A stretch of DNA of 64,000 nt, from the IMG/VR virus record IMGVR_UViG_3300025129_000005; one strand, 5' to 3'. The position numbers and the translations under genes were made by a program. The notes under the pieces are model-generated. The model had not been told where the DNA came from. It made no database searches and was given only the letters and a program-made list of their open reading frames with translations. Shown in pieces: positions 10,720-55,071 of this stretch. This stretch comes from a virus. Taxonomy: Duplodnaviria; Caudoviricetes. The stretch's first letter is position 1; every line of letters starts with the position of its first letter.

Positions 10720-12345
10720 TTAATCCCAATAATTTAACCTATAATCAGGTGACTTTTTCTTCTGAGTCTGGACATACCATGCATATGATGAGGTATCTGC
10801 ACCAGCACTAACCTTGACGTAAGGAAAATATATATCATACGAGTCTTTAAGTTTACCAGATAAATCTAACAAAGGAGATATCGTTGACCATGATCCTAAA
10901 ATTAAAAATGAATTAGCCTCATTATATTCTATAACAAAATCATTCAAATACCATGAATTATCAAACAGTATTACATATAATCCCATACCAGACGTATATA
11001 ATGGCGTCTGATCGGAAAGCGTTACCAGCGTATCCAAACCACTCTGAGTAAATATCCCATTATACCTTTTAGCTACACTGAAATCCAACACACCGGGGTT
11101 TTGAGGTGCGAATACAGGAAGACCCGTAGATATATTATATTTTGTTATAGAAGTGATAGTATCCATTGTTGATTCGTAAAATTTGATATCTCCGTAAGAA
11201 TTAATCCATGAATACCATACACCTACGTTAGTACTGCCACTTACAACAAAAGAATCGGGTTCGACCCCTTGATTCGGGATAGTATCATCATAAGGACCAT
11301 TTCTATCACTACATCCTATAATTCTACATCCTTTAGATGCTTCAAACCATACTGCGTCAAGTATCTTACAATTTATAAAAGTTGACCATCTATCAAAAAA
11401 GAATCCATTTTTTGAGATACAATTAATAAATGTTGATCCTGATGATGGAGATACATCACCACCGAAATAACTATCTAAGACGACAGACCTGCCGCCAAGG
11501 TCAAGACCTCAACCACTAGACGTTCGAACGTTCCTGACATAACATCCTGTGGACAATGCTCCGTTTGCTATAGTTAAACCATTATTGCCATCGTTATATT
11601 TAAGTAATCCGTTAACATTTTCAATAATCCATTTGATACCAGCTTTATCATGCCAAGGTCTGCTGCTATTGTCAAAGATATCATCCAGACCATTTGATGA
11701 TATAAGTGTGGGTGGATTATCCCATACACCAATAGAAAGATTTTTCATTTCTATCAAAATTTCTCTATTAATAGCGAAAGGTATTATCCCTTCATATGAT
11801 TCATATGAATTATATTCTTTCAATACCAGTGTTGTATCACTAATAATATCTGTAATGGTGAACAGAGTATTCGTGTTATTTGGCTCAAAAAAGTCCCCTA
11901 TGACCGGAGCTTTAGTGTATGTTGTTTCTAATGAAGACCATACAAAGTTATTAGCCACGACAATATTTGTACCATATTCAAACGTAATTGAATATGTTTG
12001 TGATTCTGGTGACAAAACCGGGGGATCTTGTGTATAGTCATAAGATGAATTATAGTTATCAGGGTAATGGACATCAAATCTATAAAAATTTGTTCCTTCT
12101 GTAACATGAATTCTAGTGTTATCCTCACCCTTACCATAAAAACGTATTGGTGTCACTGAAACCGATAAATCAACATCTATATCATTATAGATTTGATGAT
12201 CTCCTTCGGATAATAACATATTCCTCTGACCAGCATTCCAAGAGTCTTCTATTGTAAGGAAGTCTCCGGCTCCAGTCGGATCTATAATAGACCATGTGAG
12301 ACTATCAACAGATCTTTTTGGAAAAAATTTATTCAATTGTGTCAT
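10720..12345 (-). CDS. Beta-helix-like virion/receptor-binding paralog with one in-frame TGA (codon 279; candidate Sec readthrough or nonsense allele)
   Basis: ORFs 11509-12345 and 10720-11166 are in the same frame; the 114 intervening codons have no stop; the joined 541 aa aligns end to end with the three 553-561 aa paralogs at 31730-36811. Confidence 0.8.
11479..11511 (-). promoter_or_regulatory. Candidate bacterial SECIS element after UGA
   Basis: mRNA UGA-GGUCUUGACCUU-GGCGGCA GGUC UGUCGUC: 7-bp stem with G-led loop, apex matching fdhF SECIS GCAGGUCUG. Confidence 0.55.
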
Positions 12346-12387: not shown

Positions 12388-13914
12388 TTAGTTTTCTTCT
12401 CTGTCCTCTTTCTCTACCTTCTTCTTTTTTTTATTCTTGATATAATCAGGTCTATTGGTAACCATATAAACTCTAGCAGGATTAACCACTGATCCAGATC
12501 TTATCATAAAATCTTTATTGATTAGAACAGGTGTTGTTTTATGACTACGATCATTTAAATTAAACGGTACTTTTGAATAATTAACACCTTCAAATGTGAC
12601 ATTTAATTCTACAACTACCCTCTTCTCATCCAATTTTTCTTCCGAATCAGAATTATTTTTCATTCTAATTTCGTTTAATTTCGTCCCTGACATCTTTTTA
12701 CCCATAGTAGACCATGTTACCTTAGACCCTTCGACATTAACGTCTTGTGCGTCAAGTGAGGAGCTACCAGCGGCATTTCCGGTGTCAAACCGAGCATGTA
12801 ATTGACCGATACCCTCGATCTCTATGGATTCAATCACACCAATCTGCTGTGGTGGTCTATTCCAATTTATGGTATTCTTTGCATATTGCATCACCATATC
12901 AACAATATCTAATTTGGTCAGTTCCTCTATACCATCTGTACCGGGGGAAGAGTTAACCTCAAGAATATATGGGTTTCCTTCAACATCAAACATGATATCC
13001 ACGCCGCACCATTTACACTGAACTGATTTTGCAGCTTTAACTGCCAATTCTCGTATTTCCTTGGTTGGTCTATATTTACCAGTCTTTCCGCCTAGATGAA
13101 CGTTTGAACGGAAATCGTTATCAACGACCTTTCGCTTCATTGCCGCAATAACCTTGTCACCCAAAACATGAAGTCGAACATCATGGTCAGACTTAACGTA
13201 TCTCTGCAACATCATCTCAACTTCATCACCAACAGCCCATATAGCTTGAAGTGTGGACTTTAATGCTTTGTACTCATTGACAATGAATACACCTTTCCCC
13301 TGAGTACCACTTAATGTCTTAACAACAACAGGAAATCCACCGCCAACTTTTTTGTGTGCCAACTCAAGCATTTCCTCTGTAGGAACTAGCGCAGTATCAG
13401 GAACAGGAAGACCAGCTTCAACTAGCTTTAATGTTGTTAAATACTTGTCTTCACATGTTTGAATAGAAGACTTTTCGTTCAAGAAACAAAAACGATATCT
13501 CTCAAGACGTGACATAAGGTTTTGTGAATATCGATGAAACATAACACCGCGTCTGGCAATGACAAAAGTTTTATCACGATCAATCTCATGACCTTCTTTA
13601 TCACCAACGTTATAGATCTTGATAGTTCCTTCGTCGCCTTTCTCAAGATAAGCAGTGTCAGCGAATGCTGTGTAAAAAGGAACATCATTTTTGCTACACC
13701 ATTTCTCTATTTTGATGATAGTTGGGTTCTTTTTTGACATCTTTCTATTCTTGGAATCGGTAGATGATGTTAGTATAAGGATATTAAACCCTTCAACCTC
13801 ATCAATATCAACCATTTCCTCTTCGGGATCAGAGTCAATACCATCTGCTTCATGGATAACAGAATTTAACTTTAACTTTTCAAATTCTTCTTTAAGTGAC
13901 ATTTGATACCCCAT
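12388..13914 (-). CDS. RimK-family ATP-grasp ligase fused to RimK-associated aspartic-type protease domain
   Basis: DKYLT, VVKTLSGTQGKGV, DFRSNVHLGG, CGVDI, ILEVNSSPG; C-terminal ARFDTGN...LNDRSH...VLI. Confidence 0.85.
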   Translation of the reverse strand: MGYQMSLKEEFEKLKLNSVIHEADGIDSDPEEEMVDIDEVEGFNILILTSSTDSKNRKMSKKNPTIIKIEKWCSKNDVPFYTAFADTAYLEKGDEGTIKIYNVGDKEGHEIDRDKTFVIARRGVMFHRYSQNLMSRLERYRFCFLNEKSSIQTCEDKYLTTLKLVEAGLPVPDTALVPTEEMLELAHKKVGGGFPVVVKTLSGTQGKGVFIVNEYKALKSTLQAIWAVGDEVEMMLQRYVKSDHDVRLHVLGDKVIAAMKRKVVDNDFRSNVHLGGKTGKYRPTKEIRELAVKAAKSVQCKWCGVDIMFDVEGNPYILEVNSSPGTDGIEELTKLDIVDMVMQYAKNTINWNRPPQQIGVIESIEIEGIGQLHARFDTGNAAGSSSLDAQDVNVEGSKVTWSTMGKKMSGTKLNEIRMKNNSDSEEKLDEKRVVVELNVTFEGVNYSKVPFNLNDRSHKTTPVLINKDFMIRSGSVVNPARVYMVTNRPDYIKNKKKKKVEKEDREEN

Positions 13915-17038: not shown

Positions 17039-17782
17039 TTATTGGGATGCGGCGATTTTCTCTCGTATTTTTCTGACCGCAGGTAATTCCGATTTTGCTG
17101 TATGTTTAATTCCAGTATAAAATATGGCTAACATAAGGTTGTATATTGTTCTACCCAACCATGGAACAGAAATAATAGATCCCGTGGCAAACAAACCAAT
17201 CAACATCAGCCCGTCAGGAGATCCAAAAATGTCCTCAAGACTATAAGCACCCTTCAATGCTAATGCTATATTTGTGAAATCGAAATCATAATCCAAATTA
17301 CCTATAAATGTCATCTGAGTCCACATAAAAAATAACAGCCCTGCAACAACCGATCCAGTAACTTTCTTAAGTAGAGGATACTTTTCGGCAAACTCATCAA
17401 ACTTAATCGTCCCCTGTCGTATCTTCTGATATATTTTGGTTTTGTATAATTCACTGAATATCTCAAACAATCCTTGTCTAATAAACATCGTCAGAGTATT
17501 GACAGACTTAAAAATAACTTTTAATGAAAACCCAAATGATTTAAGCAACTTGAACATATTCTTTTCACTAAAAGCATTGATTATCTCTACGGCACTTAGA
17601 CCAAAATCAAATATCATCTGATCGAGAATTTCGCCCGCCTCTTTAAACTTCCTGACAATAAACCCGACCGCCTTGTCCTTTAAATCAACAAGACCCTCGT
17701 CTACACCAAAGTAATAGTTTATTCCTTGGATGTATTGTTCATATGTAACATCAGATTCATTTATATACTGCTCAAATCTCAT
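17039..17782 (-). CDS. Hydrophobic protein with capsid-targeting-like leader
   Basis: MRFEQYINE|S; C-terminal hydrophobic helices. Confidence 0.6.
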   Translation of the reverse strand: MRFEQYINESDVTYEQYIQGINYYFGVDEGLVDLKDKAVGFIVRKFKEAGEILDQMIFDFGLSAVEIINAFSEKNMFKLLKSFGFSLKVIFKSVNTLTMFIRQGLFEIFSELYKTKIYQKIRQGTIKFDEFAEKYPLLKKVTGSVVAGLLFFMWTQMTFIGNLDYDFDFTNIALALKGAYSLEDIFGSPDGLMLIGLFATGSIISVPWLGRTIYNLMLAIFYTGIKHTAKSELPAVRKIREKIAASQ

Positions 17783-18518
17783 ATAAATATTCTCCCTGTG
17801 AAGAACTAACCATCACCGTCTTTGTTGACCACCACACTTCCTTGTTAAACGGTAATACATCACCAACCTTTCGCAAAACAAACCCATTCTTTGCCGGATC
17901 AAGGTAATCAGTACACGCCTGTAACATGTTACCATTGTAAAACTCCTTAAAAAAACGGGACACTGGCTTATTTTTATGCGGCGAGCTTAATACCTCATCC
18001 ATTTTTTCAAATTGTTTAAGTAAAGTTCCCCATTTATCAGAAGGTGATTCCTTTATATACGTTTCGAATGCAAACTTAAGATCTTCATTGAAAGTATCAA
18101 GCGAAGGACTAAAGGAATCCCATAAATCATCCTCTGGACATACACCAATATCAGTACCATCAATGGGTAGCATTATATAAGTTTTTCCTATGTGACGATC
18201 GACCCTGCTGGGGCTTGAAGCACCAATTACTGACTTACTTCTCTTTGGATATTTGTTCCATAACGACATATTATCCATCATAACAGTATAATAATTATAG
18301 GTATATCGAGAATCTCTTTTGAATCTTGATGGTTCAACAACACCATAGTCATTTGTGTAATTTTCGGAACTTCTATATAAACCACGACCCTCTGTATACA
18401 TTCTCAGTGAATTACTGCATCTCTTTTTAATGAATTCAAACGCATCTTCACGACTGATCGGCTTGGTTCGACCACTAGTTCGTTTAGAATCCTCTATTAA
18501 AAAATTTTCTAATCTCAT
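17772..18518 (-). CDS. ADP-ribosyltransferase-like paralog C
   Basis: Leader MRLENFLIE; LYRS, YPKRSKSVIGASS and KEVWW. Confidence 0.5.
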   Translation of the reverse strand: MRLENFLIEDSKRTSGRTKPISREDAFEFIKKRCSNSLRMYTEGRGLYRSSENYTNDYGVVEPSRFKRDSRYTYNYYTVMMDNMSLWNKYPKRSKSVIGASSPSRVDRHIGKTYIMLPIDGTDIGVCPEDDLWDSFSPSLDTFNEDLKFAFETYIKESPSDKWGTLLKQFEKMDEVLSSPHKNKPVSRFFKEFYNGNMLQACTDYLDPAKNGFVLRKVGDVLPFNKEVWWSTKTVMVSSSQGEYLYEI

Positions 18519-18533
18519 AGTAGCTCCTAAATA

Positions 18534-19370
18534 TCAATCAATCTGCGGTAAATTGTGACGATGCAAGAAAAAACAAGCCTCTCCTTGTTCATACAACAAT
18601 CTCCCTATATCATCAAAGGTAATATAACACTCACCATTCATCCCCCATGACTTACCCCATGAATTATGTATAGTGAATCTTTGTTTGGATACATTAACAG
18701 AATTAACTAAAACACAATGACCACCAGCTATTTCACCTTTTGCATAGATATATCCATTAGAATCAGGATAGAACATTCCGGTATACCAATTAATCCCAAT
18801 TACTGCTGGACCGTTATATCCAACACCCAATATCAAGTCCTCCAATCCGAATGCCCAACGATACTCCTCTATCCACCCGAGTTTCTTCGCAACCTTGGCT
18901 CCAGCCAAAACACTCGTCCCTTCATAAAACGGGAATCCTCCGGGATATGACCCACCATTCCATTCATCGATTTTCTGTGCTTCCCAATATATTTTTTCTT
19001 TGGCATATCGTTCCGTGATACCTCTGACTTCTGCTGGTCTGGCGATCAATTCATGGGCAATACCAAAACCAACACAGGCTCCATCAGGTCCCTGATCCAG
19101 TTGAGCATCGCATCTCCATGTATAGGAACGTCTCTTCTTGGTACTGACTGTCGACCTTATACCATATCCACGACTACGTTCATCGAACTGGACTATACGA
19201 TCAAGTCTAGCGTCACTCGTAATAACATGACCCTTCAATAATATACTTCCGTCAACTCGCATCTCATTTACAATTGAATTGAGTTTTTCGTCTTCAAGCT
19301 TCTTGATGTGTTTCATTTCTTTAACTTTTTCCAGATAATCATTATGTCTTGATTGTACAGTGCTACCCAT
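18534..19370 (-). CDS. Papain-like (C1) cysteine peptidase
   Basis: DQGPDGACVGFG (Gln/Cys), GGHCV (His), HNSWGKSWG (Asn). Confidence 0.85.
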   Translation of the reverse strand: MGSTVQSRHNDYLEKVKEMKHIKKLEDEKLNSIVNEMRVDGSILLKGHVITSDARLDRIVQFDERSRGYGIRSTVSTKKRRSYTWRCDAQLDQGPDGACVGFGIAHELIARPAEVRGITERYAKEKIYWEAQKIDEWNGGSYPGGFPFYEGTSVLAGAKVAKKLGWIEEYRWAFGLEDLILGVGYNGPAVIGINWYTGMFYPDSNGYIYAKGEIAGGHCVLVNSVNVSKQRFTIHNSWGKSWGMNGECYITFDDIGRLLYEQGEACFFLHRHNLPQID

Positions 19371-19388
19371 ATCAAATCTCCTTTGTTT

Positions 19389-20222
19389 TTATTGAATATA
19401 AGCTTCCATTTTATCTTTAAAACTTGGATCATTCCATAGACTCAATTCAACTAAAATACAGTAACCATCAGTCCATACCTCTTTTCTGCGGGGAATGGCA
19501 TTACCGACCTTTTTTAATTGAAAATTTTTATCAGGTTCCATGACTGTTTTATAAAATCCAAAAAGGTCTTTGCTATCGAACCACATATCAATCAAATTAT
19601 CCGTCGGACTGTAACTTGATAAAATTTTTGACAAATCTTTTCTTATGTCACGGTCAGTATTCATTCGCCCTATTATATCATTTATCGTTGAAAGCTTTGA
19701 CCAAGATCCGTCATAGGGTCTGGCTATAGTAGGATAATTATAACTCTTTTCTTCTATATAACCCATATATGACCAAATAGTATCATCAACAAACGCATTT
19801 ATTTGACCTAAATCTTCGCCGGTACTTTTATAACTTACAGAAAATATATCATCGTAATTAACAACACCCACTGTAGACCCATCTTCTGGAAGAACAACAT
19901 AAAGTCTGTTCCCATAAGACATAGCTTTACCCATATCAGTAGAACATATAACACTTTCACTTCTTTTGGGATATCCCGAGAAAGTACCTCCATTGTCCAT
20001 GAAAAGGGTATAATAATTAAAGGTGTTTCTGGATTCTCTTTTTCTGTTCTGCTTAGGATCAATCTCCATAACAGTACCTTTACCAAGTACACCACGAAAG
20101 ATAAGATTATTTTTAAGTGATCTATTATAAGCCTTCATGCATCTTTTGGATATAATCTCAAGACCCTTATCAAGGTTAATACTTTTGCTCCTGCCTTCAT
20201 TTAAGTAATGTTCTAATTTCAT
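19389..20222 (-). CDS. ADP-ribosyltransferase-like paralog D
   Basis: Leader MKLEHYLNE; IFRG, YPKRSESVICST, SYG and KEVWT. Confidence 0.5.
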   Translation of the reverse strand: MKLEHYLNEGRSKSINLDKGLEIISKRCMKAYNRSLKNNLIFRGVLGKGTVMEIDPKQNRKRESRNTFNYYTLFMDNGGTFSGYPKRSESVICSTDMGKAMSYGNRLYVVLPEDGSTVGVVNYDDIFSVSYKSTGEDLGQINAFVDDTIWSYMGYIEEKSYNYPTIARPYDGSWSKLSTINDIIGRMNTDRDIRKDLSKILSSYSPTDNLIDMWFDSKDLFGFYKTVMEPDKNFQLKKVGNAIPRRKEVWTDGYCILVELSLWNDPSFKDKMEAYIQ

Positions 20223-31729: not shown

Positions 31730-33415
31730 TTAAGTCACATTAATTCTATGCGAAATGTCTTTTGCTTGAATCTGTATACGATAAAATTTTGTTGTATAAT
31801 CACCAGAAGTCGTATAGTGCGCATAATTAAAATGGAGTGCTGCTCCGACCAGATAACCATCTCCATTAATATATGGACTTAGTATCGACCAAGAATCACG
31901 AATCCTGATTTCGTTTGAATTTAATGATACATTATCTATAACAAACAAATTATCAACAGATGAACTGCTATCAATTTTAAACCTAACAGTCATATTATCA
32001 GTGTCAACAATCGGTGTTGTTATTAAAGTTTCATCCGCTGATAATATAGTGTGATCTGTTGTCCCATCCTGTATCAGAATTCCGTAATATTTTTTTATTT
32101 TTGACAAATCGATATAATTCATATCTTCTGATAATAATGTCAAACCTTCGCCACCATCATAAACTTGAATTGATGTAATAACATCAACATCAGATTCATA
32201 CAAAGGTGCGACCCCTATACCGGATGAAATAAAAGATCCAATATCTTGATAGGCATATACATAAGAAGAGGGCGATATATCTCTTCCCTGAAAATACAAA
32301 GATTCTGTAATATAACCATCCAAAGGCATAACATCATCAACGGGACCATAAAAATCCTCACACCCCATAATTCTAGCGTCATAGTTTTGGTTATTTACAA
32401 TTCTTCCGTTGAGATTTGTACAGTTAATAAGTTTACAATTTTTCGATACAATAATATCACCTTTATCAAAAACACAATCAACAAAGACATTATTACTATA
32501 CATATACCCAATATCAAAATAACATCCAATTGCATAGAGTTTGGCAATATAAACTCCATTTAAACTCATAAAATTACAATTAATGGCTTGGCTACCAGCA
32601 CCTTTTCCTGTTGTGGCAAATTCATTAAAATCCCCTCCATAAAAATCAAAAGTATCAAGATTATATGACATTGACACATAATAATTCCATTGATTTAACG
32701 TAATACTACTTGATCTGTGAGAAAAAAATTCAACATTCTGGTTTATTATCTCTTGACCATCAACAGTCATCGCGAAATTCTTAAATTCTATACGACAATT
32801 CTTTGAAACTCTCCAACCAATTTCTTCAACAAAATCAATAACATCGTTATGGTCTTCTATGGTCAAGAATGTACCAGACTCATCAATGGATTGTATTCTA
32901 AAATATACTATTCCTTCACCAAGTTCTATGTAATCACCCACTTCAATGCGATAAGGTGTAAGTGAAGTTAAACCATCAGATGCAAGAGTATTCCAATTAA
33001 AATTATCAGCATAAACTCTATCGCCACCTAAACTACAGGAAATAGTCTTATAACCCGATTGTATAATTGTAGGAGGATTAACAGAATAATCATAGTAGTT
33101 TTGATAATCCTTATCATAATAAATTTTCATATTATGAAAAGTAGCGCCGTCATTAATAATAACTTTCGTTGTACTTCTACTCACACCATGGATACGTAAT
33201 ACGTCATCTGGTCTGTTATTCATATCCCTAAGTATATCTCTGGTTAACACGTGATTACCTTCTCGCAGAAAAATATTCCAGTCACCGGCATCATATGCAT
33301 CGTTGATTGAAGTGTAATCCCCTTTACCAGATAAATCAACAACCTTCCATTCCCCTGTCATTGGGTGAAGTGTTGTTTTTTTGTCTTTTATATAAAAATC
33401 ATTTAATTCTGACAT
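31730..33415 (-). CDS. Beta-helix-like virion/receptor-binding paralog 1
   Basis: VDLSGKGDYTSINDA N-cap typical of beta-helix proteins; Cys/Asn-rich FxxCxF rungs; late-promoter context. Confidence 0.6.
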   Translation of the reverse strand: MSELNDFYIKDKKTTLHPMTGEWKVVDLSGKGDYTSINDAYDAGDWNIFLREGNHVLTRDILRDMNNRPDDVLRIHGVSRSTTKVIINDGATFHNMKIYYDKDYQNYYDYSVNPPTIIQSGYKTISCSLGGDRVYADNFNWNTLASDGLTSLTPYRIEVGDYIELGEGIVYFRIQSIDESGTFLTIEDHNDVIDFVEEIGWRVSKNCRIEFKNFAMTVDGQEIINQNVEFFSHRSSSITLNQWNYYVSMSYNLDTFDFYGGDFNEFATTGKGAGSQAINCNFMSLNGVYIAKLYAIGCYFDIGYMYSNNVFVDCVFDKGDIIVSKNCKLINCTNLNGRIVNNQNYDARIMGCEDFYGPVDDVMPLDGYITESLYFQGRDISPSSYVYAYQDIGSFISSGIGVAPLYESDVDVITSIQVYDGGEGLTLLSEDMNYIDLSKIKKYYGILIQDGTTDHTILSADETLITTPIVDTDNMTVRFKIDSSSSVDNLFVIDNVSLNSNEIRIRDSWSILSPYINGDGYLVGAALHFNYAHYTTSGDYTTKFYRIQIQAKDISHRINVT

Positions 33416-33435
33416 TATTATCTCCTTGAAAATAA

Positions 33436-35097
33436 TTAATAATAATCTATCCTTGGTATATGGAGAGGTTTTGGTTGAACTTGGACATAATAAACGTTAC
33501 CGAATCTATTCACCGAACCACCATCGTATACATAGGGAAAATATAGAGAAGATCCTTTTAACACACCATCATAGATAAAAGGTTCTAATATTGACCACGA
33601 ATCTTTTAACCTTATATTATAATAATCTATAGACTCAATTAAAAATGTTTCACTAACAGCGCCCTCATATTGACCTTGATACAACATACCTATATTATCA
33701 CTTTGTGTTATATTATTATTATGTAAAATGTTACCCTGATCAGATGTTAGAATAGTGTCATCCGTAAGACCATCACGGGTTAATATTCCATAATACCGTT
33801 TCATCCCAGAGAAATCAAATCCCTTTATATCATGATATGGTTGTATTGTTCCACTATTATACACATCGATAGCTGTTATAAGATCATGAGTAGCTTCATA
33901 TGCTCCGGTATTCGAGATAAACTGCCCTGCTTTATAAAAGCGATCTTTAGTTGAAACGATAGTTCTTCCTGAAAAAGTTAAAGTTTCGGTAAGTCTACCA
34001 TTTCTGGGAATAATACTATCAATTTTACCATCAACATCCAAACATCCAACGAATCTGACCTTATTATCATAATTATACAATTTACACTTTATACCTCTAC
34101 ACCCAATTAAGGATAAGTTTGTACCATCATCAATAAAAAAATTTTCATCAAAGATGCAATTAATAAAAGTTGAATTTCCATAACATACGATATCTTCAAA
34201 ATAACAATCAAAGAATTTACCTCTTGATATATAAGGGGATAGATCCTCAGAAAGAGTATTGAAATTTCTGATAGTACTACCAGAACCCATACCATCATAA
34301 CAAAAGTTGATAGAACCACCCGTGAGAGGCAAATAACCACCTGTGACATCAACATTATCTATTTTATATGCAACGGGACATGATACATTCCAGTCGTTAC
34401 TTCTGTTATCATGATTGATAAAATCTCGTCTACCAGAATCATAGGTATCAATTAATTCTGGATGATCCGCATATAAGTGGATGTTAGAAAGTTCTAGTTT
34501 GAATTCTTTGGTTATAAAGAAATAGTCATAATTGATGATATCTTCGCAGTCATTATGACCATCAATTACAAGGTAACTACCATCAGCGGATATCTCCCTT
34601 ATCCTGAAATATTGTGAATAAGTGAGTGATATATAACTTCCGACTTGTATACAAGGTCTTGTTTCTGATAACAAAATCCAATCAAAATTGTTTGCATAAA
34701 CTTTGTTATCACCAAGTGAACAAGATATAAATCTTTCTTTTATTGCGCCACTTGGTGGGTTTGTGTTATAATCATAACCGTTATCAAAATCTTCCGTAAA
34801 ATAAGGAATTATATTATACATAATATTACCATTAGTATATATCAACTTTGTCGTTGATTTACTCTCACCATGTATTCTAAGGGGTATATCACCTTGAACT
34901 GACAAGTCATAACGCATACTATCTGTCATGACATGATCACCTGTGGTTAAAAATAAGTTATAATGACCATCATTAAATGCATCTGTAACCGACACATAAT
35001 CACCGTCACCATTCACATCAACAATCGTCCAATCACCATACATTGGATGAAGTGTTGTTTTTTTATATTTTGTATATAAGTTATTTAATTGTGTCAT
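33436..35097 (-). CDS. Beta-helix-like virion/receptor-binding paralog 2
   Basis: Same architecture; VDVNGDGDYVSVTDA. Confidence 0.6.
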   Translation of the reverse strand: MTQLNNLYTKYKKTTLHPMYGDWTIVDVNGDGDYVSVTDAFNDGHYNLFLTTGDHVMTDSMRYDLSVQGDIPLRIHGESKSTTKLIYTNGNIMYNIIPYFTEDFDNGYDYNTNPPSGAIKERFISCSLGDNKVYANNFDWILLSETRPCIQVGSYISLTYSQYFRIREISADGSYLVIDGHNDCEDIINYDYFFITKEFKLELSNIHLYADHPELIDTYDSGRRDFINHDNRSNDWNVSCPVAYKIDNVDVTGGYLPLTGGSINFCYDGMGSGSTIRNFNTLSEDLSPYISRGKFFDCYFEDIVCYGNSTFINCIFDENFFIDDGTNLSLIGCRGIKCKLYNYDNKVRFVGCLDVDGKIDSIIPRNGRLTETLTFSGRTIVSTKDRFYKAGQFISNTGAYEATHDLITAIDVYNSGTIQPYHDIKGFDFSGMKRYYGILTRDGLTDDTILTSDQGNILHNNNITQSDNIGMLYQGQYEGAVSETFLIESIDYYNIRLKDSWSILEPFIYDGVLKGSSLYFPYVYDGGSVNRFGNVYYVQVQPKPLHIPRIDYY

Positions 35098-36803
35098 TAC
35101 GTTCTCCTACTTTCATGTGAATGATTGATCATAAACTTAACCAAAACCTTGAAATATTGTCTCTTATCTGAGCTTGAACATAAAAGGTATAATATGGATT
35201 ATATACAGGGTTATACACATAAGGGAAGTATATAGATCTATTATTAATAAATTTACCCTCATATAAATAGGGGCTTAATATTGTCCATGAATTATTTAAC
35301 CTCATTTCTTGGTTAGGATCTAAATCACTAGTGTCAATAATAAATGATGTAGTTGTTTGTCCAGATGAAACAAGCCACACAGATAAATTATCGGATAACA
35401 ATACTTCATTATTAAAAAGAACATTATCAGTACCAAAATTAAAAATGGTATGGTCAGTAACACCATCTTGAGTGAATGTACCATAATAACGTTTTATTTT
35501 ACTGAAATCTAATTGATTATATTGATATTCATATCTAACACCTGTTGGTGTATATATTACTTCAACAGAAGTTATCATATCTTCATTACTTTCGTATGCA
35601 CGGTATAGGGATTTGAAATTATCAACAAAAACAAATTTATCTGCGACAGTCGCACCATTGGTACCAGTAAAAACAAGCAATTCAGTTTTCCTGCCCTGTG
35701 AGGGCATTACATCTTCAACATCACCGTTCACATCTCTACATCCTATTACTCTAGACGTGGAAGTAATATTAAGTATTCTGCTGTTAAGTAAACTACAACC
35801 TATAAGTGTACACCTATCAGACATATACAAATCATCACTGTCATCTATAACACAGTTTATTAGTGTAGAGTTATTATAAAGCTCAATTTCATCAAAATAA
35901 CAGTTTGTTGCTGACAACCCCGGTAGATATAATCGCCCTTTTGATAATGTATTAAAATTATTGACAGTTGAAATGCTCCCAACTCCATCATAAGAAAACC
36001 TGATAACGTCCCCGTTACCCGTATTGCCACCATAAAAATCAACGCATTTAATATCACATGATATTCCTGCTCCTACACACCAACTATTCGTTGCAATACC
36101 ATTTAAACTCCCACTCGGGAATATAATAAATTCGGTATTGTATTCCTCAAACGTATCAATTACTGACGCATCAGCAAATATAGTAATATTTTCAAGATTT
36201 AGTTTGATCTCTTTGGATATAATCCAATAAGTTTGATTAATAAAATCACCTGAAATATTATGCCTGTTTAGTACAATAAATGCACCAGCAGGATCAATTG
36301 AAATTATTTCATAAAACTCATTATTATTCAATACTATACAATCACCGACATTAATACTATATTTTGAGGGATAAGCTGTTGCCAGAGTATTCCAATTAAA
36401 ATTATCCGCGTAAACTTTATCAGAACCATTTATAACTGTTATACTATTTACCGATTCATAATAATCCGGCGTTTCCAATGAGTAATCATAATTTGAAGTA
36501 TATCCGGTTTGTGTATAAGGTACAAGTTGATGCATAACATTTGCAGTATTCAATATAAGTCTTGTTGTCGCTTTAGTTACTCCATGAATTCGTAATGGAA
36601 TGTTACCCATAGTATCAAGGTCGTAATATATACTTTCAGTTAAATAATGATCACCTTCTTGTAGAAATAAATCATATTTACCATCATTAAATGCATCTGT
36701 AACCGACACATAATCACCGTCACCATTCACATCAACAATCGTCCAATCACCATACATTGGATGAAGTGTTGTTTTTTTATATTTTGTATATAAGTTATTT
36801 AAT
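34966..36803. repeat. 124-bp identical direct repeat (34966-35089 and 36680-36803)
   Basis: Identical DNA encoding the N-termini of paralogs 2 and 3. Confidence 0.85.
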
Positions 36804-36811
36804 CGGGCCAT
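35129..36811 (-). CDS. Beta-helix-like virion/receptor-binding paralog 3
   Basis: Same architecture; CATAAATA late-promoter variant near 36853-36860. Confidence 0.6.
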   Translation of the reverse strand: MARLNNLYTKYKKTTLHPMYGDWTIVDVNGDGDYVSVTDAFNDGKYDLFLQEGDHYLTESIYYDLDTMGNIPLRIHGVTKATTRLILNTANVMHQLVPYTQTGYTSNYDYSLETPDYYESVNSITVINGSDKVYADNFNWNTLATAYPSKYSINVGDCIVLNNNEFYEIISIDPAGAFIVLNRHNISGDFINQTYWIISKEIKLNLENITIFADASVIDTFEEYNTEFIIFPSGSLNGIATNSWCVGAGISCDIKCVDFYGGNTGNGDVIRFSYDGVGSISTVNNFNTLSKGRLYLPGLSATNCYFDEIELYNNSTLINCVIDDSDDLYMSDRCTLIGCSLLNSRILNITSTSRVIGCRDVNGDVEDVMPSQGRKTELLVFTGTNGATVADKFVFVDNFKSLYRAYESNEDMITSVEVIYTPTGVRYEYQYNQLDFSKIKRYYGTFTQDGVTDHTIFNFGTDNVLFNNEVLLSDNLSVWLVSSGQTTTSFIIDTSDLDPNQEMRLNNSWTILSPYLYEGKFINNRSIYFPYVYNPVYNPYYTFYVQAQIRDNISRFWLSL

Positions 36812-50975: not shown

Positions 50976-51045
50976 GAGCAATTTCTAAGGTGTAAATATG
51001 TATGATATCGACAATATGATATTTCAGGATAAGGAGAAAATAGAA

Positions 51046-52113
51046 ATGAGTGATACACAAACTGTTACCGAAAAAAGAACCGTTGTGAAAAGTGAAACTA
51101 AGGCTAAGAAAAACAAGCCGGGTATTGGATTAGATGTTGGTACAGGGTTTCTTGTTGGCGCGGGTTATGATGGAGCAAAAGTAAAATTCGCACCTCTCAG
51201 GGACGCATTTTATACTTTAGATAAAGATACATTTAATCGTTCAATGTTTGATAAGGGTAGTATGAAATATATAGAAATAGGTGGTAGTGTTCATGTTATT
51301 GGTGAGGATGCGTTAACTCTTGCCAAGATTAGAAATACTTCTGCCTCTCGTCCTTTGAGTGAAGGTGTAATTAACCCTAAAGAAAGGAATGCTGCACCTA
51401 TTTTAAAAGAAATGTTCAGATATTGTGTACAACCATTCATAAATCGAGAAGGAGAGACAATAGTTTTTTCTGTGCCTGCACAAAAGATTGGTGATGAAGG
51501 ATTTAACGTTGATTATCACTCTATGTCTATACAGTCATTGGCAAAAACCTTTGGACTTAATGCGGTACCTTTAAACGAAGCGTATGCTGTAATTCTTTCT
51601 GAGATGGAAAGTACTGATGATGTTACTGGATTAGGGTTTTCTTTCGGCGCAGGTTTAGTAAATGTGTGTTTTGTGTATAAATCTATGTTGTTGTTTGAAT
51701 TCAGCATAGGAAAATCAGGTGATTTTATTGATACAGAATCAGCAAAAGCGTGTGGAATTTCCACTTCTGTAATAAATCATATTAAAGAGAAGGAATTAGT
51801 TTTGACAGCTGATGAATTTTCTGCCTCTCCTGAAATTAGAGCGTTGATTTTTACTTATAGATACGTGATTAAGAATACCCTAAAAGAGGTACTCAGAGCA
51901 TTTACTACAACAAGTGATATTAATGTTATTGATCCAATTCCGATTGTTATTTCAGGTGGAACGAGTATTCCAGAGGGGTTTATTGATTTATTTCAAGAAG
52001 AGCTTAAAAACGTTAACTTGCCGTTCAAGGTAACAGAAGTTATCCCGGCTAAAAATAGGTTGGCGGCGGTTGCGCATGGCTGTTTGATCTGGGCGAACCA
52101 CCTAGAAAAATAA
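51046..52113 (+). CDS. Actin-like ATPase
   Basis: GLDVGTG (phosphate 1), LNEAYAV (connect 1), GFSFGAG (phosphate 2), ISGGTS (adenosine), AVAHG (connect 2); AAGGAG RBS before 51046. Confidence 0.8.
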   Translation: MSDTQTVTEKRTVVKSETKAKKNKPGIGLDVGTGFLVGAGYDGAKVKFAPLRDAFYTLDKDTFNRSMFDKGSMKYIEIGGSVHVIGEDALTLAKIRNTSASRPLSEGVINPKERNAAPILKEMFRYCVQPFINREGETIVFSVPAQKIGDEGFNVDYHSMSIQSLAKTFGLNAVPLNEAYAVILSEMESTDDVTGLGFSFGAGLVNVCFVYKSMLLFEFSIGKSGDFIDTESAKACGISTSVINHIKEKELVLTADEFSASPEIRALIFTYRYVIKNTLKEVLRAFTTTSDINVIDPIPIVISGGTSIPEGFIDLFQEELKNVNLPFKVTEVIPAKNRLAAVAHGCLIWANHLEK

Positions 52114-52126
52114 GAGAGAGGTAGTT

Positions 52127-52495
52127 ATGTCAGATGACAAAACGCCCATTCATTCCGAAGGCTGGAAGCAATGGTCAATGCAGGTAAAAGAGTCCCTTGA
52201 AAAATTAGAGAAGAAAGTAGAATTGTTAGAGGGTCGTACTACAAAACACAGAGAAGAATTTTTAGTTGAAACAACTACGCTAAAGGTTAAAGCTGGTGTT
52301 GTAGGTACGGTTGCAGGTATTATAGCATCTTTGGTGACTACTATTATGGGGGGTTTTATTGTATACCAGTTAACTACCGCTAGACATAGTAGCCCCCCTG
52401 AAACCTACAAACATCCATCACAGACAGAGCAGCCAGTCGGTATGATATCCCCTAGCTCACTAAATATTTTGAATATAAAGGGGGATATTAGCTAA
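52127..52495 (+). CDS. Coiled-coil plus single-TM protein (holin-like)
   Basis: ESLEKLEKKVELLE then hydrophobic AGVVGTVAGIIASLVTTIMGGFIVY. Confidence 0.45.
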   Translation: MSDDKTPIHSEGWKQWSMQVKESLEKLEKKVELLEGRTTKHREEFLVETTTLKVKAGVVGTVAGIIASLVTTIMGGFIVYQLTTARHSSPPETYKHPSQTEQPVGMISPSSLNILNIKGDIS

Positions 52496-53622
52496 TGGGG
52501 TGGATTGATAATTTATCGAGACGTATCGGCGAAAGAAAGGTTAAATCAATGATAGAAAAGGAACATCAGGAAACTCCTATGCCAGATATCAAAAAAGATC
52601 TTGATGACCTTGAAGAGTTGAGATTACAGTTGGTAAAAAAAGACGAGGAACTCGAAAAAACTCGCCTCGAATGGGATCGGACTTTTGATTCAATCATCGA
52701 TAACATAGTATTAATTGACAGGGATATGTGTATAACAAAGGCTAACAATTCTTTCCATGATTGCATGGAAAGAGAGGTTGGTCATATAGAATATCTGGGT
52801 ATGAGATGGTCTGATTTTAGAAGCATTTCGGGTATACCAAGTGACGTATGTCCTGTAGAAAGATGCTTTGAAACCGGAGTTCATCAAGAAGCAACTATTC
52901 CGATTCGAGGTAAAATAGTGGCTGTCACGGTTAATCCTATATATATTAACACAACAATGGGTAAAGAGATACTTGGTGTCGTTCGTGTATCAAGAGATAT
53001 AACCTCTGTGGAGAAGATTAAAACCACATTAGAGAGACGATCTACTATATACCACGCTATATCAGAAATGAGTAAAATATTAGTTAATCATAGGAATTGG
53101 AGTTCTGCTGTTAATTTGATCCTTGGTGATCTCGGTAGAGCAATAGGTGCTAGCAGGGTATATATTTTTAAAAATGAAATAAGGGGTGATTGTATCTGTT
53201 CAATCCGACAGAGTGTTTTTCATAACAAACAAAGGGATTATTGTGATTCTGGTGATTTAACTGATTGTATTAATTATGATTTATTACCGGAATGGCGTTC
53301 TAAAATGGAACATGGTTTGTCTGTTGAGGGGAGTATCATAGATTGTGATTTGTGTCCCAATAAACATGCATGTAAATGCTCGGATGAGGTCTTGGTTTGC
53401 GCTGTCCCTGTTTTTGTTGATGGTAGCTGGTGGGGTTTTATTGGATTTGACTATCAGAACGGAACACGTATTTGGAAGGACGAGGATGCCACTTTGTTAC
53501 GAATTGCGGCAGATATCCTTGGTGGCGTCATTTATCACCGCAGTAGATATTTTGATGCTTTGAATGCTTTGAATGGTTTGGAAGATTGTGTAGATGAACT
53601 GGTTCATGAAAGGGAATTATAG
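52495..53622 (+). CDS. PAS-GAF sensor-like protein lacking an output domain
   Basis: EWDRTFDSIIDNIVLIDRD..ITKAN (PAS); LGRAIGASRVYIF...AVPVFVDGSWWGFIGFD...W...D..LL (GAF); ends at ELVHER. Confidence 0.8.
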   Translation: MGWIDNLSRRIGERKVKSMIEKEHQETPMPDIKKDLDDLEELRLQLVKKDEELEKTRLEWDRTFDSIIDNIVLIDRDMCITKANNSFHDCMEREVGHIEYLGMRWSDFRSISGIPSDVCPVERCFETGVHQEATIPIRGKIVAVTVNPIYINTTMGKEILGVVRVSRDITSVEKIKTTLERRSTIYHAISEMSKILVNHRNWSSAVNLILGDLGRAIGASRVYIFKNEIRGDCICSIRQSVFHNKQRDYCDSGDLTDCINYDLLPEWRSKMEHGLSVEGSIIDCDLCPNKHACKCSDEVLVCAVPVFVDGSWWGFIGFDYQNGTRIWKDEDATLLRIAADILGGVIYHRSRYFDALNALNGLEDCVDELVHEREL

Positions 53623-53625
53623 GTT

Positions 53626-55071
53626 ATGGCGGTAACAGTAAATACCAGTAATTATTCACTATTAAGTAACTGTGATTCATTAACCAGTGGTGGGACGTGG
53701 ACTGGCGGTAATGCCAGAACCATTGAAACAGATTTTTATAAATTTGATGGTGGTGGTGGTACACCCGCGTGTATCGCTTATACAATAAGAACTATCTCAA
53801 ACTATCAGCTGAATTTTTCACCAACGACCTCCGTTAATTTAACAGTAGGATCTCCTATTATACGATTGTGGTTCTTGTCGTCTCAACAATTTGCTTCTCA
53901 AGCATTAGGTGGTATTAGATTTTATATAACCAATGGTGTAAACACAGCGTACTGGAATGTATTAGGAGGGGACACGTACCCCGGTGGTTGGTATATGATT
54001 GCTGTTGACACTGACACAACACAAACCAGCGGAACAAAACCTACCATGACATCCATCACCGGGATCGGTTTGGATATCACGACAACAGCCGCTTCAAAGA
54101 ATATTCCCACTACATATATAGATCATTTGCATAGGTTGGATAGTTTGATTACATATGGTGATGTTGGAGGTGTAAGCCCGTATGGTATAGAAGAGGTATA
54201 TCAGGCACAGAATACAACCACAACAGCATATGGTGTAATAAGAAAGGTTAACTCTGTTTATTTCCTCGCAGGTTCTTATGGTATAGGTGATGCCACTGGT
54301 GCAAACAATACGGATTACGCTGATAGTGATGAAGTTATCATATATGACGGATCGCCTATGGCCGATGGTAAATTCAATATAATCGTGGTTGAGGGAACCG
54401 GTGTAACCGATGCATCATTTAACCAATGTGTTATAAAAGCATCAGGAAATCCTTTTGATTTTAATGGTACGGACACTGGTGTACCTATATCACTAACTGG
54501 TAACAGTTTCATTAATTGTCGATTGCCTGAGTTTTCCTCTGATGATACTGTAACAAGCAATAATTTTATTGGTTGTAATGCAGTATATCCATATTCAAGT
54601 ACTTTTGAGAATAATACAATTTCTGCCAGTATTGAGACTGTCACGGGATCGTTATATATAGATTCTACATCAACGGCAACTAATTGTGTTAATTTAACAT
54701 TTAATACTTATAGTGGAAAATATGCGGTTTATATTCCGGCAACGGTAACGGGATCTATAACATTTGATAATTGGCAGTTTGATGGTAGCGGTACGGATGC
54801 TTATTCAGGGAACATGCTTGATGCTGCTAAACCTTCAACTGGTGTGTTTGGTATGACCTCTCAGGCAAATACCATGTATACTACATTGATGAAAGATGGT
54901 TATGTTCAACTTGATCTTAGAGAACACTTTGAACGTAATACAGAATTGATGTATAGAAAGGCAGAGTTAGACGACGAGCCGGACAATTGGGCTATACGAG
55001 TTAAAACATTTAATGATGCGGATACAGCACAGCTGGCATTTGCTATTTCGTGGTTGGAAATTAGAGCCTAA
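53626..55071 (+). CDS. Putative virion structural protein
   Basis: Thr/Gly/Asn-rich beta protein in late cluster with beta-helix-like middle (NSFINC, NNFIGC). Confidence 0.6.
   Translation: MAVTVNTSNYSLLSNCDSLTSGGTWTGGNARTIETDFYKFDGGGGTPACIAYTIRTISNYQLNFSPTTSVNLTVGSPIIRLWFLSSQQFASQALGGIRFYITNGVNTAYWNVLGGDTYPGGWYMIAVDTDTTQTSGTKPTMTSITGIGLDITTTAASKNIPTTYIDHLHRLDSLITYGDVGGVSPYGIEEVYQAQNTTTTAYGVIRKVNSVYFLAGSYGIGDATGANNTDYADSDEVIIYDGSPMADGKFNIIVVEGTGVTDASFNQCVIKASGNPFDFNGTDTGVPISLTGNSFINCRLPEFSSDDTVTSNNFIGCNAVYPYSSTFENNTISASIETVTGSLYIDSTSTATNCVNLTFNTYSGKYAVYIPATVTGSITFDNWQFDGSGTDAYSGNMLDAAKPSTGVFGMTSQANTMYTTLMKDGYVQLDLREHFERNTELMYRKAELDDEPDNWAIRVKTFNDADTAQLAFAISWLEIRA

Follow-up and report, generated by a model that had tools for sequence, protein, structure and literature searches.

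An in-frame UGA followed by an fdhF-like hairpin in the gene for a tailspike-like protein of an uncultured giant phage: a candidate phage selenoprotein

The gene that occupies positions 12345 to 10720 on the minus strand of a 64,000-nucleotide stretch of DNA from an uncultured giant phage (the whole stretch is referred to here as the window) runs from an ATG at 12345 to a TAA at 10720–10722 and contains exactly one internal stop, a TGA at codon 279. The question raised by this locus is whether the UGA ends the protein, giving a product of 278 residues, or is itself translated, giving a read-through product of 541 residues, and in the latter case which amino acid is inserted. As a previous sequence-only reading of the DNA had stated, the TGA at 11509–11511 is the sole stop between the ATG and the TAA and splits what is otherwise one frame, and 114 stop-free codons, counted to the next in-frame start (ATG 11166), separate the two open reading frames that it leaves. 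All of the other statements made in that reading about the sequence itself were confirmed as well. The features of the locus, all on the minus strand, are the following.

10720..12345, minus strand: whole gene, encoding a tailspike-like right-handed beta-helix protein (translation, paralog and ortholog alignments, AlphaFold2, Foldseek)
11509..11511, minus strand: in-frame UGA, codon 279, the proposed Sec codon (TGA in the same column of orthologs L006, L007, and L008; TGC in L001)
11497..11508, minus strand: 12-nt spacer from the UGA to the hairpin, encoding G-(L/I)-D-(L/M) (equal length in five of five orthologs)
11479..11496, minus strand: proposed SECIS upper stem-loop with a 7-bp stem and a GGUC loop (pairing in five orthologs, RNAalifold)
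11469..11502, minus strand: possible 4-bp lower stem around the hairpin, weakly supported (RNAalifold consensus)
31730..36811, minus strand: three tandem paralogs of 561, 553, and 560 residues from the same beta-helix family, which served as outgroup and negative control (alignment, tree)

The UGA at codon 279 is real, fixed, and ancient. The same letters are present at 11509–11511 in contigs from four sequencing runs that belong to four studies (an aquifer, a hot spring, a second aquifer, and a cold spring), with word depths of 3–322 behind the comparison, and no other letter occurs at these positions in any of them. The truncated 278-residue product has entries in 101 blocks of public assemblies, in contigs of up to 221 kb, and no full-length variant of the 541-residue protein was found among 5.8 billion proteins. 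Orthologs were retrieved by exhaustive HMM search, and the set used for analysis comprises five sequences including that of the window. Three of these, L006, L007, and L008, come from other metagenomes that differ in sample and source and are 38–54% identical to the window protein. Each has a TGA at the alignment column occupied by the TGA of the window (5853–5855 in L006, 4989–4991 in L007, and 955–957 in L008), and the TGA of L008 is repeated in a second, separate soil run. The TGA-bearing orthologs are more than one substitution per site apart from each other in the maximum-likelihood tree. The fifth sequence, L001, has TGC (Cys) in the aligned column and consists of one continuous open reading frame. 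It is the sole Cys form found, so that the site is TGA in four sequences, Cys in one, and no other codon in any. In the tree, L001 is the sister of L006 (support 96/95) and lies within the TGA clade (100/100); this nested position implies one TGA-to-TGC change as opposed to three independent Cys-to-stop changes.

Further searches did not extend the family. No relatives were found in the INPHARED phages, by DNA or by protein, in IMG/VR, by protein patterns and a DNA pattern, or in the JGI metagenome contigs, by protein. The DNA pattern had no match in the GTDB genome contigs, and in metagenome contigs it recovered L008 again together with four chance matches. Word-index protein searches with the 278-residue fragment and with the N-terminal alignment returned already known members and nothing new.

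The alignments show the half of the gene downstream of the UGA to be protein-coding and under purifying selection. Identity between orthologs is 40–58% in the C-terminal halves and 38–60% in the N-terminal halves, and the C-terminal halves of the orthologs contain no other stops or frameshifts. In the first three codons after the UGA the differences are mostly synonymous and the sequence G-(L/I)-D is kept, indicating that the spacer stretch is translated; the motif around codon 279 is GG-U-G-(L/I)-D-(L/M)-GGRS. The joined protein had been said to resemble its paralogs on both sides of the stop, and it aligns with them (31730–33415, 33436–35097, and 35129–36811) from end to end with 27–30% identity. 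None of these three in-window paralogs has a UGA, a Cys, or a GGUC hairpin at the aligned site. The caveat that no paralog has Cys at this position is thus correct for the paralogs in the window but does not hold beyond it, where the true ortholog L001 has a Cys.

The hairpin that had been proposed 12 nt after the UGA is present as GGCGGCA-GGUC-UGUCGUC at 11496..11479 on the minus strand, where 11496–11490 pair with 11485–11479 in a perfect 7-bp stem that includes two G-U pairs and is closed by a loop at 11489–11486. The 12-nt spacer and the GGUC loop are found in five of five orthologs, all 35 of the pair cells in these sequences have standard pairs, and two of the pairs show compensatory C-G to U-A changes, although the covariation signal is modest in a shuffle control (11/500) with five sequences. 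RNAalifold recovers the 7-bp hairpin de novo and also gives the lower stem, in which 11502–11499 pair with 11472–11469; two of its four pairs are broken in one sequence each. Taken alone, the candidate SECIS hairpin is a short one of only moderate stability; its ΔG is -7.4 kcal/mol in the window, and the orthologs range from -5.5 to -8.1 (-5.5 to -7.4 among the TGA forms). The fold energy is not unusual relative to dinucleotide shuffles (z = -0.07 to -1.2), and in a longer context other pairings are preferred in some cases at minimum free energy (MFE). The case for the hairpin is one of conservation, covariation, and codon choice, not of energy. In five of five orthologs the loop is formed by an AGG codon for Arg and a TCT codon for Ser, AGG being a minority Arg codon in the window, and in synonymous resampling the 7-bp stem was in place in 3–5.5% of draws per sequence. 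A GGUC-capped hairpin with a 7-bp stem occurs only once on the two strands of the 64-kb window, namely at this site. The alternative GACCU/AGGUC pairing to which the sequence-only reading had drawn attention does exist in the window but is seen in this phage only and not in the orthologs. Since L001, which has Cys at the site, retains the hairpin, the peptide GGRS(V/T/I)(V/I) could explain part of the hairpin conservation. Rfam places no SECIS or other family on the site and no SECIS on L008 or L001, even at E values as high as 10, a negative result of little weight because the bacterial SECIS models of Rfam are lineage-specific.

The bSECIS consensus model of Zhang and Gladyshev, as PMC13188914 summarises it, comprises a loop of 3–9 nt, a stem of 4–16 bp, a G in the first two loop positions, a distance of 16–37 nt from the UGA, and an MFE of -7.5 or lower. 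The candidate falls within it, having a 4-nt GGUC loop, 7 bp, a distance of 19 nt, and 45-nt MFE values of -8.8 to -12.5. In Escherichia coli fdhF (NC_000913.3), the UGA is followed by 11 nt and then by GGUUGCA-GGUC-UGCACC, the sequence that the sequence-only reading had given. The 9-mer GCAGGUCUG of this element is identical in the phage hairpin, and the two share the same 4-nt GGUC loop, including the G-U contacted by SelB in E. coli; the fdhF loop is, however, 1 nt nearer to the UGA (an 11-nt versus a 12-nt spacer). The earlier description of a common apex with a GU shifted by one nucleotide and a missing bulged U is borne out. The determinants of E. coli SelB are the bulged U17 plus G23/U24 at exactly 11-nt spacing (PMC8659212), of which the phage hairpin has the loop GU but not the bulged U, and its spacer is 12 nt. 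The bulged U and the 11-nt spacing define the E. coli type and not bSECIS elements in general. Bacterial selenoprotein genes likewise have an in-frame UGA with a stem-loop just downstream, inside the coding region, and Sec/Cys pairs among orthologs, as seen here with L001. They are, in contrast, cellular genes for oxidoreductases, whereas the present gene is a phage gene for a tailspike-like beta-helix protein, and there is no CxxU or UxxC redox motif.

Codon 279 is most likely decoded as Sec, inserted by the SelB of the host. The proposal that the UGA is recoded by means of an fdhF-like SECIS is supported by the conserved TGA, the nested Cys form, the conserved C-terminal half, and the covarying hairpin, from which we infer both the identity of the inserted residue and the reading of the hairpin by host SelB. 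By this mechanism, the SelB-GTP-Sec-tRNA(Sec) complex of the host would bind the 7-bp GGUC-capped hairpin, acting as a bacterial-type SECIS inside the coding sequence, as the ribosome nears the UGA. The complex would deliver Sec in competition with RF2, and translation would then go on to complete the second half of the beta-helix, yielding the full-length, virion-type protein of 541 residues. No tRNA-Sec, other tRNA, or Sel genes are present within the 64-kb window. The host must on this reading be a Sec user, so that the UGA and hairpin could serve as a marker for host prediction; an epimerase of the phage has no close homologue in the genome contigs, and its ESM-Atlas taxa are scattered over many phyla.

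Programmed read-through independent of SelB likewise predicts that the UGA and the structure after it are conserved and that the downstream half is coding. The UGA would in this case be leaky, perhaps with assistance from the hairpin, and decoding by a near-cognate tRNA for Trp, Cys, or Arg would set a fixed ratio of 278-residue to full-length product, as for the A1 protein of Q-beta. The small size of the hairpin and its lack of the E. coli bulged U would be in keeping with such a mechanism. We nevertheless consider it unlikely because the sole sense codon seen at the site specifies Cys rather than Trp (TGG), Arg, or Gly, the loop is the GGUC of the fdhF SECIS in a geometry that lies within the bSECIS consensus, and a stop in the middle of the beta-helix would leave the 278-residue product with an incomplete fold and no obvious use.

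The sequence UGAGGU at the stop contains an SD-like GAGG and allows a different interpretation, a split gene in which translation stops at the UGA and re-initiates at a start 9 nt further on, the two halves then assembling. Behind the GAGG, at this distance from the UGA, there is an ATG in L007 and a TTG in L008, and gene callers began the C-terminal half of L007 (P0010) at that ATG. The corresponding codon is, however, CTT in the window and TTA in L006, neither of which is a start codon, and in the window 114 codons pass before another in-frame start is reached. As protein, the three codons that lead from the UGA to the supposed restart are conserved through synonymous changes, and the Cys ortholog is not split at all. 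These features make re-initiation very unlikely.

General suppression of UGA or a change of code late in infection, brought about by a phage suppressor tRNA with a UCA anticodon or by a host that uses code 4 or 25, could draw on the large tRNA array that the phage carries 59–66 kb upstream of the window and on the location of the UGA in a Gly-rich motif. Groundwater communities, moreover, include code-25 bacteria. But TGA terminates 24 of the 69 genes in the window, one paralog of this gene among them, and in the L007 ortholog the internal TGA is accompanied by a TGA that ends the gene. No further plausible split genes in the window are joined when TGA is taken as sense, the ortholog with a sense codon has Cys and not Gly or Trp, and a UCA tRNA is absent from the sequence-only annotations of the phage. 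Global reassignment of TGA, whether by code 4 or 25 or by a suppressor tRNA, was rejected on the grounds that there is one in-frame TGA in 64 kb and that so many genes end in this codon; phages with recoded stops have many of them in late genes and leave the codon unused as a terminator, a pattern that does not occur here. We regard this explanation as highly improbable. Elsewhere in the window, a possible TAG read-through joining 52495–53622 with 53626–55071 (889 residues when joined) was judged to represent two adjacent in-frame genes.

An inactivating nonsense mutation, leaving a pseudogene or a decaying paralog, would take only a single TGY-to-TGA change, and the three paralogs that are intact could stand in for the gene, but it retains almost no probability given the same stop in four such divergent orthologs, the fully open downstream halves that are conserved like the upstream halves, and a TGA fixed in every assembly sampled; the agreement of the four runs and the deep conservation of the TGA and of the downstream half likewise led us to reject an assembly error and the recent nonsense mutation that the sequence-only reading had thought plausible.

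The AlphaFold2 model of the 541-residue protein (mean pLDDT 76.7) is a right-handed parallel beta-helix. In Foldseek searches of the PDB and BFVD, it matched phage tailspikes and depolymerases with E values of 1e-8 to 1e-5 and a probability of 1.0, at low TM-scores (0.2–0.33), and its viral look-alikes carry the annotations tail spike, fibre, or pectate lyase. The protein has no match in Pfam (Beta_helix and Pectate_lyase_3 included) or in PHROG (tail families included). The predicted fold and the size are similar to those of the tailspikes and depolymerases phi297 gp61 (4RU5), AP22 gp54 (4Y9V), LKA1 gp49 (4RU4), and K1 lyase (7W1C). The presence of several paralogs is also a feature of multi-spike phages. 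In the predicted model, codon 279 falls in a loop midway along the beta-helix. Placed in this loop and in the best-conserved motif of the clade, Sec279 would probably not be neutral but have a function, as a nucleophile, redox centre, or ligand. To our knowledge, no tailspike contains Sec or needs recoding, and the literature searched yielded no beta-helix structural protein reported to have Sec. It is possible, although we hold this only tentatively, that the gene represents an undescribed phage-specific family of selenoproteins in the receptor-binding apparatus, with Sec279 catalytic or redox-active in a tailspike enzyme. That the UGA acts as a selenium- or host-dependent switch for the full-length protein is a matter of speculation.

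Apart from those of cells, selenoproteins are known in a small number of eukaryotic viruses. These reportedly include the GPx homologues of molluscum contagiosum and fowlpox, which resemble the present case in that a virus gene relies on the Sec insertion machinery of the host. They are captured cellular glutathione peroxidases with a eukaryotic SECIS in the 3'-UTR, whereas the phage gene encodes a structural-type protein with a bacterial SECIS inside the open reading frame. Phrase searches of the literature found no report of a phage selenoprotein, and phages and viruses go unmentioned in a review of the prokaryotic selenoproteome from 2026 (PMC13188914).

If confirmed, the decoding of this UGA as Sec would mean that phages are able to exploit the SelB/tRNA-Sec recoding of their hosts and that Sec is useful beyond the classical redox enzymes. 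It would also mean that gene callers systematically cut such phage genes in two; the database entries for this family are all fragments of 278 residues or of 148–266 residues. The element itself would provide a compact natural SECIS, consisting of the UGA, 12 nt, and then 18 nt, that has been kept over deep divergence. Should the more tentative reading as a tailspike enzyme prove true, the protein would represent a selenoenzyme of a new kind, distinct from the classical oxidoreductases, infectivity would depend on the Sec machinery of the host and on selenium supply, and trace-element status would be newly connected with the host range of phages.

The gene is one reading frame with a single interruption, followed at a short distance by a candidate SECIS upper stem-loop:

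12345 to 10720, minus strand: UGA gene, from the ATG at 12345 to the TAA at 10720–10722, single-frame ORF with one interruption
11511 to 11509, minus strand: internal TGA, codon 279, sole in-frame stop of the ORF
11496 to 11479, minus strand: hairpin GGCGGCA-GGUC-UGUCGUC, 12 nt after the UGA

Translation through codon 279 gives a 541-aa protein that aligns over its full length, both flanks of the stop included, with three tandem beta-helix-family paralogs without the UGA (31730–36811, minus strand) at 27–30% identity. The nearest in-frame start past the TGA lies 114 codons downstream. The sequence-only reading had proposed a phage selenoprotein here from a joined ORF with homology to the paralogs on both sides of its single TGA and from the hairpin; translation and alignment bear out the former, the hairpin lies where it was described, and the observation proved accurate in every detail checked.

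The 278-aa truncated product occurs exactly in 101 blocks of public assemblies, in contigs of up to 221 kb, and a query with the read-through protein among 5.8 billion proteins found no full-length variant of the gene from the same phage. Contigs from four runs of four studies (aquifer, hot spring, second aquifer, and cold spring) show a single SNP in the 600 nt of 11200–11800, and in all of them the TGA at 11509–11511 is unchanged, with no alternative letter. The TGA is neither an error nor private to one assembly. Near-identical sequence of the UGA gene and of the phage as a whole (all sampled words; 0–1 SNP in 600 nt) was present in 24 runs from 21 studies, labeled aquifer (2017), cold spring (2019), and hot springs (2025); either the phage is extraordinarily widespread and clonal, or a common site, laboratory, or contaminant links the samples.

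One full-length close relative (protein P0002) came out of an exhaustive HMM search of 1.84 billion representatives, along with several half-length proteins whose termini fall at the stop site; the contigs fetched for these show that each is one half of a gene interrupted at that very codon. The TGA-bearing orthologs each have exactly one internal stop and read through to 541–559 aa. The site is TGA in four sequences and Cys in one.

Codons from the stop site through the hairpin in the five orthologs
Window, TGA: TGA GGT CTT GAC CTT GGC GGC AGG TCT GTC GTC
L006 (Logan, 15.7-kb contig), TGA: TGA GGT ATC GAT TTA GGC GGC AGG TCT GTC GTT
L007 (ENA, 14.3-kb scaffold), TGA: TGA GGT ATC GAC ATG GGT GGT AGG TCT ACC ATC
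L008 (JGI, 2.2-kb contig), TGA: TGA GGT ATT GAC TTG GGC GGT AGG TCT ATC GTC
L001 (P0002), TGC: TGC GGC CTC GAT TTG GGC GGT AGG TCT ACC GTC

The TGA of L008 was reconfirmed in an independent soil run. Pairwise identity among the orthologs is similar in the N-terminal halves (38–60%) and the C-terminal halves (40–58%), from which it follows that purifying selection acts equally on both sides of the stop. The ML tree groups the five orthologs (100/100) to the exclusion of the paralogs and two distant relatives, with the topology ((window, L007), (L008, (L006, L001-Cys))); because the Cys form is nested (support 96/95 and 100/99), the most parsimonious history has TGA in the ancestor of the clade and a single subsequent change to TGC. 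An ancient UGA that is retained, but replaced by Cys in a single lineage, is what comparative analyses conventionally take as the mark of a selenoprotein. The Sargasso Sea selenoproteome study, for one, asked for Cys-containing homologs, a SECIS-like structure, and an in-frame TGA conserved across two or more different sequences (PMC1088965). Orthology of the window and L006 loci is supported by partial synteny, since both phages carry phrog_12810 paralogs near the UGA gene (window 17772–20222; L006 3529–4290), and the gene adjoining the Cys ortholog in L001 has a tail-protein domain.

Besides this hairpin, neither strand of the window has a GGUC-capped one with a stem of 7 bp, and nothing comparable is found at the aligned position of the paralogs. 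All five orthologs keep the 12-nt spacer and the GGUC loop, and all 35 pair cells of the stem are standard, including two pairs that are C-G or U-A and two that are G-U or G-C; offsetting the 3' partners by 1–3 columns lowers pairing to 29–66%. RNAalifold recovers the hairpin unguided, with a weak lower stem of 4 bp in addition. The hairpin is built from codons uncommon in the genome (GGC, 7.6% of Gly; AGG, 16% of Arg; GTC, 14% of Val), and the loop codons AGG and TCT are invariant in all five sequences, whereas the four codons just upstream vary freely at synonymous sites. On resampling of synonymous codons from the phage's own usage, a 7-bp stem was in place in 3–5.5% of draws per sequence; because synonymous sites are saturated at such divergence, that all five should retain it is very improbable unless selection acts on the RNA. 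In the TGA forms the hairpin by itself reaches a modest −5.5 to −7.4 kcal/mol, fold energies show no excess stability relative to dinucleotide shuffles, the MFE of some longer contexts favors other pairings, and the covariation shuffle control is moderately significant (11/500, with five sequences). A second GGUC-capped hairpin of 6 bp, GGUUGA-GGUC-UUGACC (11499–11514, minus strand), has the UGA within its stem and competes with the spacer; it is private to this phage, and the orthologs carry GGUA there.

The E. coli fdhF SECIS, which the sequence-only reading had given correctly, consists in NC_000913.3 of the UGA, 11 nt, and then GGUUGCA-GGUC-UGCACC, and has GCAGGUCUG in common with the phage element. 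The phage element differs in that it is without the bulged U17, which E. coli SelB needs (PMC8659212), and in that its loop is one nucleotide farther from the UGA, so it is no copy of the E. coli type. The published bacterial consensus specifies a 3–9-nt loop with G within its first two positions, an upper stem of 4–16 bp, a UGA-to-loop distance of 16–37 nt, and an MFE no higher than −7.5 kcal/mol (PMC13188914); in the phage element the loop is the 4-nt GGUC, the stem is 7 bp, the spacing is 19 nt, and the 45-nt MFE is −8.8 to −12.5. No Rfam model matches it.

The UGA is very probably decoded and the full-length protein made, and the residue is likely to be selenocysteine, inserted via the hairpin by the host SelB. 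Read-through of the UGA independent of SelB is an unlikely alternative, because Cys is the sole sense codon seen at the site and the loop is of the SelB type. Termination followed by re-initiation has little probability: a possible restart lies 9 nt downstream behind GAGG in L007 (ATG) and L008 (TTG), but no start codon stands there in the window (CTT) or in L006 (TTA), and the three intervening codons are kept as protein through synonymous changes. That a suppressor tRNA or a variant code reads UGA as sense is highly improbable, because TGA is a common terminator in the window (24 of the 69 confident genes, one paralog of the UGA gene included) and also terminates the L007 ortholog itself; reading TGA as sense heals no other window genes, and genome-wide reassignment is absent. 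A pseudogene is excluded by the constancy of the TGA across assemblies and by the conserved TGA and C-terminal halves in the orthologs.

The source is an uncultured giant phage, and no close relatives were found among isolate phages. The window (GC ~35%) encodes RtcB, an RNA ligase, a RimK-type ATP-grasp protein, an actin-like protein, and a 2190-aa structural protein, and a family-B DNA polymerase and a Mom-like gene lie upstream of it. Other features of the loci are as follows:

Window 12388–13914, minus strand: RimK-type ATP-grasp ligase fused to a RimB-like Zn-protease domain, 508 aa, immediately 5' of the UGA gene
Window 50998–52113, plus strand: giant-phage actin-like protein of 371 aa, matching Volactin (PF25216) along the full profile at E = 6e-59
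Window 52495–55071, plus strand: adjacent gene pair, 375 + 481 aa, in one frame, with TAG and one codon before the next ATG
L007 3471–3546, strand opposite to the gene: tRNA-Leu (anticodon TAG), ~600 nt upstream of the TGA ortholog

The RimK/RimB-like neighbor is kept in other assemblies of the same phage. The pair at 52495–55071, which read-through would join into 889 aa and which has no Pfam or PHROG match, is probably two genes. Other than the tRNA-Leu of L007, no tRNA or Sec genes were found in the window or the fetched ortholog loci.

The 541-aa protein has no family match in Pfam or PHROGs. Its AlphaFold2 model (10-sequence alignment) is all-beta with a mean pLDDT of 76.7, and Foldseek matches it to the right-handed beta-helix phage tailspikes and capsule depolymerases phi297 gp61, AP22 gp54, LKA1 gp49, and K1 lyase (E 1e-8 to 1e-5, probability 1.0, with low TM-scores), and further to viral tail spike, fiber, and pectate-lyase proteins. 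Residue 279 is placed in a loop between strands 269–275 and 288–290, in the middle of the beta-helix, and the 278-aa product would, on this model, be half a beta-helix. The clade has no longer invariant block than the one that contains this residue, G-(U/C)-G-(L/I)-D-(L/M)-G-G-R-S, and the block is missing from the non-Sec paralogs. No report of a phage-encoded selenoprotein was found in the literature searched, and phages go unmentioned in the prokaryotic selenoprotein reviews and databases of 2026, including PMC13188914. The mechanism, a UGA with a SECIS inside the ORF, is known; the candidate family of phage virion-type beta-helix selenoproteins is new.
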